Part shown: piece after piece, positions 36,484-63,682 of the stretch
Numbering within the stretch: the first letter of the stretch is position 1
Layout: each line of letters begins with the position of its first letter
Assembly (NCBI GenBank): GCA_049966395.1
Contig: JBMFUT010000001.1
Location: 1 to 64,000, forward strand
DNA: 64,000 bases
Direction: 5' to 3'
From: Candidatus Micrarchaeia archaeon
GTDB lineage: Archaea; Micrarchaeota; Micrarchaeia; Micrarchaeales; CABMGC01
Translations under genes and position numbers: made by a program
The notes under the pieces: model-generated
Databases searched by the model: none
Seen by the model: only the letters and a program-made list of their open reading frames with translations
Told to the model about the DNA's origin: nothing

Positions 36484-36485
36484 AT

Positions 36486-36560
36486 TAGCGAGGGATGGAT
36501 TTGAACCACCGTTCTCCGGGTTATGAGCCCGGCGGGCACTCCAGACTACCCTACCTCGCT
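36486..36560 (-). tRNA. initiator tRNA-Met(CAT)
   Basis: AGCGAGG acceptor with A1:U72, anticodon arm CCGGG-CTCATAA-CCCGG with three consecutive G-C pairs, T-loop TTCAAAT. Confidence 0.95.
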
Positions 36561-36585
36561 ATGCATTATAATTAGCAATACAAGA

Positions 36586-47790: not shown

Positions 47791-48255
47791 TCAGTAGCTT
47801 TTGCTCTTCAAGTGATTTATAGCTTCCCCTATCTTCGCTGCGATATCCTTGTACTCTGCCTCGAACAGGCTTCTGGCCCAAACGCCGGCGTCGTACCTAT
47901 CCCCAATGCTCGGTGGCTTGAAATAGAATTTTCCCTCCTTGTTTTCTATTATGCCCATGTTCTTCAGCCTGAGCAAGTGATACCTTAGCGTTTTCTCGTT
48001 TATTGGCTCCCAGTTGCTGTCTATGTAGCCCTTAAGTTCTTCCGCACTGGGGTCAACCTTATTTATGAACTGGAAATTTATGAGCGCGTCGAGCACAGCC
48101 ACAGCGCTGAGCCTCGATTCCCCTGGATTTATCACTCCGAGCGTAAGCGCAAGCCATCTGACTATGGACCTTTTTGTCTCAAGGACCTCGCCAGTGAGCC
48201 TGAGGTTCCTGAGCGTTATTTCTTTTTCTATGAGCGCAGACTCGTTGAGCTCCGC
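47791..48255 (-). CDS. winged-helix DNA-binding protein; true start upstream of the ORF-track GTG
   Basis: EKTLRYHLLRLKNMGII HTH; frame stays open and protein-like for 40 codons upstream of 48135, up to a GGTGA SD. Confidence 0.75.
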   Translation of the reverse strand, partial: AELNESALIEKEITLRNLRLTGEVLETKRSIVRWLALTLGVINPGESRLSAVAVLDALINFQFINKVDPSAEELKGYIDSNWEPINEKTLRYHLLRLKNMGIIENKEGKFYFKPPSIGDRYDAGVWARSLFEAEYKDIAAKIGEAINHLKSKSY

Positions 48256-59799: not shown

Positions 59800-60051
59800 A
59801 TGGTGAAATATATACCTGCAGAGCAGCTTGTTGGGAAGGAGGTCATAACTAGCGACGGCTATGATCTTGGCAAGTTTATCGATGCTGACATAAATGAAGT
59901 CAGCGGAAAGCTGACAGCATTGATACTCGAGCCAAACGTTGACAGCGCATTCGTGAACAAACTGGACGTGAAGGACGGGAAACTGAAGTTGTCTTATTCT
60001 GCGGTAATGGCTGTGAACGACTATATTGTGGTTGACAGGAAATCGATGTAA
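59800..60051 (+). CDS. PRC-barrel domain protein
   Basis: AEQLVGKEVITSDGYDLGKFID...V.AV.DYIVV. Confidence 0.9.
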   Translation: MVKYIPAEQLVGKEVITSDGYDLGKFIDADINEVSGKLTALILEPNVDSAFVNKLDVKDGKLKLSYSAVMAVNDYIVVDRKSM

Positions 60052-60067
60052 AATGTCGGTGATTTAA

Positions 60068-60763
60068 ATTATAGTCGCTGGCGGCGATGAAGCTGGTCGC
60101 GGAGCTGTCATTGGACCTCTTGTCGTAAGTCTTGTCAGCATAAAGAATGGCTATTCAAAGAGGCTTTCGACAATAGGAGTTAGAGACTCAAAAATGCTCA
60201 GCAGAAAAAAGAGGGAATACCTGTACGACGAGATATACGCCCTTGCTGACGACGTTCAGACAAAAATAATAACTCCAGAAGAGATAAACAAGGCAATGGC
60301 AAGCGGAATTTCGCTTAACGAGCTGGAGGCAATGCACTTTGCAAAGCTCATAGATGCCACAAAAGCCGATATAAAGTCTGTTTTCCTGGACTCCCCAGAT
60401 GTCATAGCCGAGCGTTTCGGCGTGAGAATAAGCCTCCTTTCTTCCAAGAACCTTGCTGTAAAGGGAACAAAGAGGCCAATACAAAAAAGCCCTATAAAGC
60501 TCATCTCTGAGCATAAGGCGGATTCAAGATATCCTGTGGTATCGGCAGCAAGCATAATAGCAAAAGTGACAAGGGATAGGGAGATAGACAAGCTTGCTCG
60601 CAAGCTGAATATCAATATTGGCTCTGGCTACCCTTCCGATTCTGAAACAGTCGACGCCATAAGGGCGAATCTGTCGACCAGCAAGCTGCAACCCCACATC
60701 AGGGTCTACTGGAAGACTCTCGAAGGAATAAGGCAGCTTAAAATGTCAGAGTTCGTAAGGTGA
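60068..60763 (+). CDS. rnhB: ribonuclease HII (non-canonical ATT/ATA start)
   Basis: IIVAGGDEAGRGAVIGP at 60068-60118 in frame with VRDSK.L, EHKAD..YPVVSAASIIAKVTRD, GSGYPSD and the C-terminal PIP box QLKMSEF. Confidence 0.95.
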   Translation: MIVAGGDEAGRGAVIGPLVVSLVSIKNGYSKRLSTIGVRDSKMLSRKKREYLYDEIYALADDVQTKIITPEEINKAMASGISLNELEAMHFAKLIDATKADIKSVFLDSPDVIAERFGVRISLLSSKNLAVKGTKRPIQKSPIKLISEHKADSRYPVVSAASIIAKVTRDREIDKLARKLNINIGSGYPSDSETVDAIRANLSTSKLQPHIRVYWKTLEGIRQLKMSEFVR

Positions 60764-60870: not shown

Positions 60871-60918
60871 ATACTACTTATTGTATTTCCGGCTTCTCTG
60901 AAATACGATATATTGTGT
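60871..60918 (+). promoter_or_regulatory. tandem NrdR boxes
   Basis: ATACTACTTATTGTAT (60871-60886) and ATACGATATATTGTGT (60903-60918), 32 bp apart, resembling consensus acaCwAtATaTwGtgt, just downstream of TATA-like TTTAAATA (60860-60867). Confidence 0.8.
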
Positions 60919-60923
60919 ATAAT

Positions 60924-61397
60924 ATGCGCTGCCCATATTGCATGTCTGAAAATACCAGCGTCATAGATACAAGGTACGTAGTGGATGACAACAGCGTGAG
61001 AAGGAGGCGCATATGCAACAACTGCAACAAGCGCTTCACAACATATGAGAAAATAAGCCTATCCGACATTACGGTCATAAAGAAGGATTCAACGAGGGAA
61101 AGCTTCGACAGGAGCAAGGTCCTTGCCGGAATAATGAAAGCGTGCGAGAAAAGGCCGATAAGCAGGGAAAAAATGGAAAGCATAGCCAACAAGGTAGAGC
61201 AGCGAATAAGGCGAAGCGGAAGCAAAGAGATAAAGTCGTCAAAAATAGGGGACATGGTCATAAAAGAACTCCTAAAGGTCGACCCAATAGCATACATACG
61301 CTTCGCAAGCGTTTACAAGAATTTCGATTCCGTAGAGGATTTCAACGAAATTGTGAAAATGCTTAAGTCTGCGAGGAACAAGAGGGTGCGGAAATGA
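60924..61397 (+). CDS. nrdR: transcriptional repressor NrdR
   Basis: MRCPYC, VIDTR, RRRRICNNCNKRFTTYE, ATP-cone VIKKD..RESFDRSK, AYIRFASVY. Confidence 0.97.
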   Translation: MRCPYCMSENTSVIDTRYVVDDNSVRRRRICNNCNKRFTTYEKISLSDITVIKKDSTRESFDRSKVLAGIMKACEKRPISREKMESIANKVEQRIRRSGSKEIKSSKIGDMVIKELLKVDPIAYIRFASVYKNFDSVEDFNEIVKMLKSARNKRVRK

Positions 61398-63682
61398 AAA
61401 TATCCAATGTTGTTAAGAGAGATGGGAGCATAGTACCTTTTGACAAGACAAAAATAACAGTAGCAATATCAAAGGCGATGCGCGAGGTTTACGACGGCTC
61501 GCTCACCGACGACGAAATCAAAAGCAAATCTGAGGAATATTCAAACGACGTATACAAGAAACTTGAAGAATTGGGAACTGACCAGCCTACAGTGGAGCAG
61601 ATACAGGATACAGTCGAACAGGCGCTGATGGAGAAGGAGCCGAAAGTTGCAAAGGCCTACATAATATATAGAAACAAAAGGTCCGAACTCAGGGCTTACA
61701 AGGAGTCTCTTGGCATAGAGGACGATCTCAAACTGCCGCTCAATTCTTTGATAGTGCTTGCTGCAAGATACCTGCTTAGGGATGAGCAGCGGCGCATAAT
61801 AGAAACGCCTAAGGCGCTTTTCGAGCGCGTTTCAAAAGCCATAGCCTCGGCAGAGTACAACTACGGCGCAGACGACAAAAAGGTAGAGGAGATTGCAACG
61901 TCGTTCTACGACGCGATGACGAACTTCGATTTCATGCCAAACAGCCCTACATTGATGAATGCAGGAACGTCTCTTGGCCAGCTGAGTGCCTGTTTCGTGC
62001 TGCCGGTAGGGGACTCCATAGAAGAAATATTCGACGCCGTCAAATGGACCGCCATAATACACAAATCCGGCGGAGGCACAGGATTTTCATTCTCGCGGCT
62101 CAGGCCATCTGGCGATGTCGTAAAGCAGACAGGAGGAATAGCGTCAGGGCCAATATCTTTCATGAAAGTTTTCGACGCCGCGACAGAAGAGATAAAGCAG
62201 GGAGGCAAGCGCAGGGGCGCCAACATGGGCATACTTCGCGTAGACCATCCTGACATACTGAATTTCATAGTGGCAAAGGAAAAGGAAGGCGTCCTTAGCA
62301 ACTTCAATATATCCGTTGCAATAACCGACCAATTCATGCAGGCGCTTGAGAGCGGCTCCAACTACAACATAATCAGCCCAAGAACAAAGAAACCAATAGG
62401 GCAGCTCAGCGCAAGGGCGGTTTGGAATCTAATTGTCACAATGGCATGGAGGACCGGAGACCCCGGTGTCGTGTTCATAGACAGGATGAACTCCACGCTG
62501 TCCAATCCTGTGCCTTCCTTCGGCCCAATAGAATCTACGAATCCGTGCGGCGAGCAGCCTTTGTATCCATTCGACTCGTGCAATCTTGGGTCAATAAACC
62601 TCGCGAGGATGCTCAAAGGCAAAAACGACCACTACGAGATAGACTGGGAAAAGTTGAAGAGAATAACTAGGCTTGGCACTCGCTTCCTTGATGATGTCAT
62701 AGACGTTAACCGTTACCCTCTGCCTCAGGTTGAAAAAACCACGAAGGCGATAAGGCGTATAGGTCTTGGAGTGATGGGCTGGGCAGACATGCTCATAAAG
62801 CTCGGCATACCTTACGACTCAAACGAGGCGCTTCTGCTGGCTGAGAAGGTAATGAAATTCATAACGACAGAAGCGCGGAAGATGTCAGAGGAGCTTGCCG
62901 AAGAGCGTGGACCTTTCCCAGAATTCGAGAAAAGCATATGGTACAAGTTTGGAAGCAAGCCGCTGAGAAATTCGACTGTTACAACAATCGCACCGACAGG
63001 CACCATAAGCATAATCGCAGGTGGCACGTCGCAGAGCATAGAGCCAATGTTCTCCGTTGCATATATTAGAAACGTAGAATCAAGCCTTGGCTCCAATCTT
63101 GTGGAAGTTAACAACACCTTCGAGGAGTTTGCAATAAAGTACGGCTTTTACACCGATGCGCTCATAAGAAAGATTGCAGGCAAAACCTCCATACAGGATG
63201 TAGAAGAAATACCAAAGGAAATAAGAAGGCTCTTCGTGACGGCGCACGACATAAAGCCAGAATGGCACGTGAAGATGCAGGCCGCATTCCAGAAGTATGT
63301 GGACAATGCAGTGTCTAAAACAATAAACTTCCCAAGCAGTGCAACCCCCCAGGAAGTCGAAGACGCATACATGCTGGCATACAAGACAGGATGCAAGGGC
63401 ATAACGATATACAGGGATAAAAGCAAGAGCGTCCAGGTGCTTACGGAGCTAAAGGTATCTGGCGTCAAGGAGGCGTCATCCAGACTTTCTCAGGCAGCAG
63501 CAGAACACATGAGAGACACTTCTATAATAGCGAGCACAACAATGAACGAGCTCAAGGAGGAAGCAAAGGATTTCGAGATAGAAGAATATTCTGAGATGCG
63601 CTGCCCAGAGTGCGGTTCCGTAATGATAGCGGGCGAGGGATGCGCCACGTGCCCAGTGTGCGGCTACAGTAAGTGCTCGTAG
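61394..63682 (+). CDS. nrdJ: adenosylcobalamin-dependent (class II) ribonucleotide reductase with N-terminal ATP cone
   Basis: VVKRDG ATP cone, PNSPTLMNAG, LSACFV, TNPCGEQPL, SCNLGSINL, TIAPTGT, C-terminal CPEC...CATCPVCGYSKC; no beta subunit nearby. Confidence 0.93.
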   Translation: MKISNVVKRDGSIVPFDKTKITVAISKAMREVYDGSLTDDEIKSKSEEYSNDVYKKLEELGTDQPTVEQIQDTVEQALMEKEPKVAKAYIIYRNKRSELRAYKESLGIEDDLKLPLNSLIVLAARYLLRDEQRRIIETPKALFERVSKAIASAEYNYGADDKKVEEIATSFYDAMTNFDFMPNSPTLMNAGTSLGQLSACFVLPVGDSIEEIFDAVKWTAIIHKSGGGTGFSFSRLRPSGDVVKQTGGIASGPISFMKVFDAATEEIKQGGKRRGANMGILRVDHPDILNFIVAKEKEGVLSNFNISVAITDQFMQALESGSNYNIISPRTKKPIGQLSARAVWNLIVTMAWRTGDPGVVFIDRMNSTLSNPVPSFGPIESTNPCGEQPLYPFDSCNLGSINLARMLKGKNDHYEIDWEKLKRITRLGTRFLDDVIDVNRYPLPQVEKTTKAIRRIGLGVMGWADMLIKLGIPYDSNEALLLAEKVMKFITTEARKMSEELAEERGPFPEFEKSIWYKFGSKPLRNSTVTTIAPTGTISIIAGGTSQSIEPMFSVAYIRNVESSLGSNLVEVNNTFEEFAIKYGFYTDALIRKIAGKTSIQDVEEIPKEIRRLFVTAHDIKPEWHVKMQAAFQKYVDNAVSKTINFPSSATPQEVEDAYMLAYKTGCKGITIYRDKSKSVQVLTELKVSGVKEASSRLSQAAAEHMRDTSIIASTTMNELKEEAKDFEIEEYSEMRCPECGSVMIAGEGCATCPVCGYSKCS

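Follow-up and report, generated by a model that had tools for sequence, protein, structure and literature searches.

The question raised by this locus is where translation of an archaeal RNase HII gene (rnhB) begins when its active-site motif lies upstream of the canonical start codons of its frame. The window, by which we mean the whole 64,000-nucleotide stretch analysed, belongs to a Micrarchaeota (DPANN) genome, that of a very small symbiotic archaeon; the assembly comprises 693,655 bases and is 89% complete. A first-pass annotation had placed the DEAGRG motif ahead of the first ATG, GTG or TTG of the frame, and this is how the letters read: the motif occupies 60086–60103 (+) and the first canonical codon, an ATG at 60194–60196 (+), is codon 43. 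The acidic residues of the motif, D7 and E8, read directly and aligned with PDB chains, are those that we take to be metal ligands, their known role in type 2 RNases H. A start at 60194 would drop both DEAGRG and GVRDSK, and Pfam positions 1–40 are missing from that form; the truncated 189-aa call that results is present in NCBI, JGI/IMG and ENA.

After the stop codon of the preceding gene the strand reads ATG TCG GTG ATT TAA, then ATT ATA GTC GCT GGC GGC GAT GAA. The TAA (60065–60067, +; read directly) is in frame and shuts out upstream starts, as had been claimed; the ATG at 60053 and the GTG at 60059, omitted from the first-pass annotation, open only a four-codon mini-ORF (60053–60067, +; M-S-V-I-stop), which is in frame with rnhB, overlaps the Shine–Dalgarno (SD) site and abuts the ATT. 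Between this TAA and codon 43 there are zero ATG, GTG or TTG codons. The SD site is GGTGAT (60058–60063, +; GGTGA at 60058–60062); the 16S 3' end of this genome is complementary to GAGGTGAT, and the GGTGAT:16S duplex amounts to −9.3 kcal/mol. Two codons come into question as the start: ATT (60068–60070, +), which we propose and which occupies the position equivalent to Met, six codons ahead of the catalytic Asp, and ATA (60071–60073, +), the second codon. The latter is the start of NCBI record P0004 (230 aa), so that one automatic annotation already implies a non-canonical rnhB start. The spacing from the first G of GGTG is 10 for ATT and 13 for ATA; among the ATG genes of this genome it is 9 in 81, 10 in 18 and 13 in 6, i.e. 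9/10 is modal and 10 is the second commonest value.

Counted from the ATT, rnhB (60068–60763, +) has 231 codons plus stop and is intact. Its product scores 191 bits against the archaeal RNase HII profile TIGR00729 (cut-off 123.3), covering profile positions 1–206 of 207, and matches RNase HII chains of the PDB (1uax, 1io2, 1eke, 1i39) over its whole length from residue 3, with E-values down to 2e-37. D7, E8, D108 and D152, presumably the four active-site acidic residues of RNase HII, are all present and aligned with the PDB chains; D108 and D152 do not vary among the 90 rows compared, DEAGRG being invariant there by construction since the rows were picked by it. The enzyme looks ordinary by sequence, its start codon being the only difference from archaeal RNase HII. 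The possibility of a pseudogene, which had been named as an outcome that would overturn a non-canonical start, finds no support in the gene itself: it is the single match in its genome, has no internal stop, and its residues 2–42, just those upstream of the first ATG, are better conserved than the rest of the product (69% against 54% identity to 89 relatives), with 13–16 synonymous differences to four near relatives in their coding sequence.

An assembly error would be the other trivial explanation. This is a metagenome assembly, and contigs from three DNA runs of one sample leave 59899–60111 uncovered; two other contigs (19,034 and 2235 bases) are also called from the codon-43 Met, which suggests indirectly that they carry no upstream ATG. 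An exact-pattern scan of metagenome contigs gave 0 matches, an uninformative result. The same pattern recurs in 75 independently assembled genomes (see below), and we regard either an error or a pseudogene as extremely improbable.

Upstream of rnhB lies an 83-aa PRC-barrel gene (59800–60051, +) that starts with ATG preceded by GGTGG and that is probably the first gene of a transcript including rnhB, the two being presumably co-transcribed. It matches Pfam PF05239 (25.4 bits, cut-off 21.2) and PRC-barrel chains of the PDB (8qzo, E = 1.5e-5; 8onw, E = 1.3e-4); we label it CdpB-like, tentatively, from the PRC domain match. It adjoins rnhB on the upstream side in 84 of the 90 genomes of the order, and its start is ATG in 59/59 placed loci. 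PRC barrels are involved in archaeal cell division, and RNA-processing genes are their frequent neighbours (bioRxiv 10.1101/2023.03.28.534520); rnhB is absent from the neighbours of this kind named in the part of that preprint available to us. A winged-helix gene (PF13463; 59377–59688, −) is divergent from the PRC–rnhB pair. Downstream, at 60915–63682 (+), follow nrdR (TIGR00244, above cut-off) and, judged by eye, an apparent class II ribonucleotide reductase, so that a gene for rNMP repair adjoins genes for dNTP supply. A promoter and terminator scan, which is sigma-70 based, gave counts at chance level.

Comparison of rnhB start codons among related genomes had been suggested as a check and was carried out. 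The gene was found in 59 of 61 genomes of relatives (its own included) and in 151/151 genomes of the phylum, and the start codon was read in all 90 distinct matches of the order Micrarchaeales. Six codons ahead of the catalytic Asp (codon −6) stands ATA in 32, ATT in 22, ATC in 21 and ATG in 10; the remaining five carry GTG, GTT, GTA, TCA and CAA, one each. Thus 75 of the 90 have ATA, ATT or ATC (ATH) at this codon. There is no ATG, GTG or TTG from codon −5 back to the in-frame stop in 43 of these 75, and in 13 more the sole canonical codon is the GTG inside the SD; in 7, including the locus studied here, a stop lies one or two codons ahead of the ATH. GGTG is found at spacing 9 in 40 ATH loci and at 10 in 27, which implies that the GTG of the SD comes into frame only by accident of spacing. 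The GGTGA ahead of ATT-ATA had been remarked on before; the letters are as described, and the arrangement is above chance since GGTG stands exactly 9 or 10 bases before ATH in 67/75 loci. An SD is present in 70/75 ATH loci compared with 3/10 ATG loci, and its median duplex energy is −8.35 kcal/mol in the former against −4.9 kcal/mol in the latter (80-row subset). The idea that ATG arises where the PRC-barrel gene is no longer next to rnhB was not borne out, as the two adjoin in 72/75 ATH loci and in 12/15 non-ATH loci. The rnhB locus accordingly displays an ATH codon at the Met-equivalent position, a strong SD and conservation of both, as would be expected of an SD-led AUH start.

Outside the order the picture changes. 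In a sample of 32 of the 80 genomes from other orders of the phylum, an SD-led ATA occurs in 5 loci (four of family f7, with a long SD, and one of f15) and a canonical start within 16 codons in 27. In three outgroup phyla, centred on genomes titled Iainarchaeum, Woesearchaeota and Thermoplasmatota, a canonical rnhB start lies within 25 codons in 30/30, 20/20 and 28/29 scored loci (78/79); left out before these counts were 10 of 30 loci of one phylum (G174), in which the motif pattern was unmatched, and one fragment of another (G173). The commonest outgroup start is ATG at the same −6 codon. The earlier proposal of non-canonical initiation is strongly supported by conservation over 90 genomes and by the ATG that 10 of these, like most outgroup genes, carry at precisely this codon, and it is very probable, as far as sequence comparison can tell, that rnhB is actually initiated at a non-AUG codon.

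As to which of the two codons serves, use of ATA 60071, alone or together with ATT, would yield a 230-aa protein. This is the NCBI call; other orders of the phylum often carry Met at codon −5, an Ile codon occupies −5 too in 66 of the 75 ATH loci, and a spacing of 13 is in use by six ATG genes of this genome. Nine ATH loci lack ATH at −5, however, the 10 loci of the order that reverted to ATG all have it at −6, and the spacing of 9/10, which covers 99 ATG genes, fits codon −6 in 67/75 loci. We consider such a start, alone or shared, improbable. On account of the spacing (10 rather than 13) and of the nine loci without Ile at the second codon, ATT is likely to be the start in preference to ATA.

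A different view would be that the ATH is an ordinary Ile codon, with the protein arising by read-through of the TAA from ATG 60053, by frameshifting or fusion with the PRC-barrel gene, or through ribosomes that reinitiate once the mini-ORF has been translated. The ATG is indeed in frame, the mini-ORF stop abuts the ATT, the PRC stop usually lies within about 30 bases of the rnhB start, and the set of codons at −6 (ATH plus one GTT and one GTA) resembles Ile/Val. Nevertheless, the mini-ORF is not conserved, as no more than 17 of the 67 loci examined have any ATG in the PRC–rnhB spacer, and the distance to the upstream stop is spread over all three frames (18, 27 and 20 of 65 loci). Internal Ile codons of these genes are 78% ATA (1493/1912) compared with 41% (29/70) at codon −6, a difference that tells against ordinary Ile only in part as codon −4 also departs from the internal bias (29/61), and the outgroups carry Met at this codon. 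Taken together, these data make this family of explanations very improbable, although reinitiation after the mini-ORF may help the proposed ATT start at this locus.

A hairpin is predicted at 60055–60082 (+), in which the SD is paired with codons 3–5 and the ATT sits in the loop (−14.9 kcal/mol). An SD-hiding hairpin as a feature of the family was considered and rejected: the fold is predicted to be more stable here than in synonymous controls (−8.3 kcal/mol), yet the structure is not conserved. SD pairing over 70 ATH loci was 0.48 against 0.44 in controls, and 0.41 in 98 ATG genes.

Relaxed start-codon selection had been offered as one cause of the unusual start, and the 723 predicted genes were scanned for near-cognate codons that follow strong SDs. 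Where GGTGA precedes the codon at spacing 9/10, the codon is near-cognate in 13 cases and another non-start codon in 25, compared with 16–18 and 77–82, respectively, at control spacings; this corresponds to roughly 8 real near-cognate starts, or around 1% of genes. A DNA ligase gene (C21:9775, +) has CTG here and is canonical in 28/28 relatives; a KaiC-like ATPase gene (C3:47934, −) has ACG and 28 of 29 relatives, paralogues included, are canonical; a protein disulfide oxidoreductase gene (C22:8104, −) has ATA, with 14/15 relatives canonical and one ATA. The genes for ATP synthase subunit C (C10:19687, −; ATA), an RpiB-like protein (C22:11998, −; CTG) and an unnamed product (C33:3409, −; ACG) each have ATG at the same codon in the closest of five genomes. 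In the window itself, a conserved 154-aa gene (47791–48255, −) has GCG at the codon equivalent to Met, preceded by GGTGAT with a spacing of 9, and no canonical start until codon 41; its relatives have ATG, GTG or TTG in 28 of 29 and ACG in one, its product has no Pfam or NCBIfam match, and the GCG may be a true start, or may have arisen by recent mutation or through an error of assembly. As these genes had been chosen for being odd in this genome, only the loci of relatives can be used as controls.

One further gene behaves more like rnhB. The gene for an HVO_2753-like zinc-finger protein (PF07754; C22:4143–4310, +; L140:443–610) starts with ATA behind GGTGAT. Among the 30 of 41 matches that were read in the order, SD-led ATA or ATC occurs in 14 loci and a canonical start, often with a decayed SD, in 16, whereas in one outgroup phylum (G172) all 22 scored loci are canonical (8/30 and 2/10 loci were left out before counting). 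By sequence it appears to be a second recurrent non-AUG gene. Start choice is somewhat relaxed in this genome, with about nine other near-cognate starts, and part of what is seen may be due to this; conservation across the order is confined to rnhB and, to a lesser degree, this zinc-finger gene.

These observations bear on the most serious competitor of our interpretation, in which initiation at the ATT is real but unselected: any AUN start would do behind a strong SD, little RNase HII would be needed, and the third base would drift near neutrality. In its favour, six checkable genes among the about nine with near-cognate starts (ligase, ATP synthase C, RpiB-like, KaiC-like, the C33 gene and the window gene ending at 48255) have a canonical start in relatives, either at the corresponding codon or at an adjacent one, and this genome evidently tolerates sporadic ATA, CTG, ACG and perhaps GCG starts. 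Against it, the control genes do not drift likewise in the relatives.

The third base of the start codon was examined on a quick IQ-TREE tree, with 80 rows counted and 36 of 116 excluded (30 from other orders, L058, L059 and four with other codons). The ATG rows are nested among ATH rows, and AUG has been regained about six times within the order. The third base requires 31 changes, not far from the median of 37 at 26 four-fold sites, as drift would predict; 26 changes are needed among A, T and C alone and only 6 between G and non-G, while the median of the latter at the four-fold sites is 14.5 and 0/26 sites have 6 or fewer, as drift would not. A share of G as low as that at the start third base (10/80, 0.125), or lower, occurs at 3 of the 26 four-fold sites, and avoidance of AUG is for this reason moderate, not absolute. 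Only 3 of 73 SD-bearing ATN loci combine ATG with a retained SD; moreover, were AUG with SD decay harmless, synonymous saturation should have moved most lineages there. The association of SD loss with AUG has a Mann–Whitney P of 8e-5, a value that ignores kinship, and, reduced to 4 independent pairs, is non-significant (sign test, median P = 0.25). On balance these patterns suggest that AUG is moderately selected against where a strong SD precedes it, a conclusion that we hold to be somewhat better than even, and unselected drift seems to us unlikely, though it is to be taken seriously. In the portions of the literature retrieved, no paper was found on harm from excess archaeal RNase HII.

The initiation machinery was inspected for signs of a general loss of fidelity. 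A gene for aIF1 was found in 60 of 61 genomes; its start codon is ATG in all 30 loci read, so that no loop of the infC type is seen in these loci. Loop 1 of aIF1, whose residues R31, Y32 and K34 have been tested (PMC6237735), keeps basic, aromatic and basic residues at these positions in the alignment. Its Gly, seen in M. jannaschii and other solved archaeal chains, is replaced in 49/49 sequences read of families f1 and f3 (including L119:1429–1734, on C15). Loss of this Gly was rejected as the cause of the rnhB starts: two f7 genomes in which rnhB starts with ATA retain the Gly, and genomes of f4, f8 and f9, families with canonical rnhB starts, have lost it too. The initiator tRNA gene (36485–36561, −) looks normal, with A1:U72, three G-C pairs and a CAU anticodon. 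Taken from aIF1 and this tRNA, general fidelity loss is not indicated. ARAGORN detected no more than 25 tRNA genes, with the initiator as the sole tRNA for Met and Ile tRNAs missing, which probably reflects incompleteness of the assembly. About 75% of the Ile codons of the genome are ATA.

We consider it reasonably probable that rnhB is made full-length from the SD-led ATT at 60068 and that this weak codon holds RNase HII well below the level of the PRC-barrel protein. GGTGAT would place the 30S subunit on the rnhB mRNA, and the ordinary initiator tRNA (CAU) would pair with the AU of AUU, leaving the third position mismatched; the product would begin Met-Ile-Val-Ala-Gly-Gly-Asp-Glu. Sulfolobus aIF1 discriminates against non-canonical starts (as cited in PMC6237735 and PMC8211752), and aIF1 might let only part of the AUU initiation attempts through. 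From the same mRNA, the AUG-started PRC-barrel protein would then be translated more than the AUU-started rnhB; it is from such considerations that we infer a reduced output of rnhB and its regulation, and the regulatory low-efficiency start offered earlier may likewise hold in part. The ancestral state in Micrarchaeales may have been a strong SD followed by AUA, AUU or AUC, and, as the SD has mostly disappeared where AUG was regained, output would be moderate either way. Once fixed, the three codons could interconvert by single changes; the set would stay narrow because CUG or ACG would presumably have to be reached through AUG or through a non-start.

A broader proposal, which we regard as rather improbable, is that rnhB and the HVO_2753-like zinc-finger gene are linked through their AUH starts in a small regulon of Micrarchaeales that operates at the level of translation. 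If it were true, output would rise as aIF1 proofreading slackens (e.g. with growth state or host attachment), the supply of a ribonucleotide-repair enzyme would be tied to the translation state in a reduced genome, and the two genes would be an archaeal counterpart of IF3-sensitive genes.

Whatever its cause, rnhB offers a clear example from nature of a core gene in archaea that very probably has a non-AUG codon as its sole start and has kept it across an order. The series running from AUH with SD to AUG mostly without SD makes the roles of aIF1 and of the SD in archaeal start stringency testable. There is also a practical side: gene callers cut off the active-site motif (the 189-aa records) or add false N-termini from the GTG of the SD, and RNase HII can therefore be misjudged as broken in these genomes. 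In the literature searched, no report was found of a non-AUG rnhB or of Micrarchaeota start codons; SD-led AUH starts are a kind known in bacteria, of which an archaeal member was not found in print.

Among the bacterial cases, E. coli infC starts at AUU. The start of E. coli pcnB is likewise AUU (title cited within PMC13009471), and S. aureus has SD-led starts at infC (AUA), cvfC1 (AUU), ccpN (AUA) and citZ (AUA), where AUU and AUA behind extended SDs yield about 10–30% of AUG output (PMC13009471). Like infC, pcnB and ccpN, the rnhB of Micrarchaeales combines a third-position mismatch with a strong, properly spaced SD, is conserved, and is a housekeeping gene plausibly held down. Unlike the bacterial AUU/AUA genes, it is served by archaeal machinery (aIF1/aIF2, no IF3) and encodes a DNA-repair nuclease, its codon wanders among AUA, AUU and AUC across the order and trades off against the SD, and no autoregulatory loop of the infC kind is seen for it.

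Within archaea, the ten bases before the rnhB ATT are those that precede the AUG of the P. abyssi aEF1A model mRNA (PMC6237735). Ribosome profiling of Haloferax volcanii found about 30% of putative alternative start sites to be near-cognate (PMC7261190); these sites resemble rnhB in placing archaeal ribosomes at near-cognate codons, but they are alternatives, set aside as possible false positives, and in the text at our disposal none is described as the sole conserved start of a core gene. Finally, in the survey of Belinky et al. (PMC5622118), as far as its available text goes, non-AUG starts of the GUG and UUG type go with stronger SDs, and switches from AUG to AUU account for 1 of 61,358 cases. 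The compensation by the SD is alike in both settings, whereas AUH is, in the rnhB of Micrarchaeales, the majority state of one gene.
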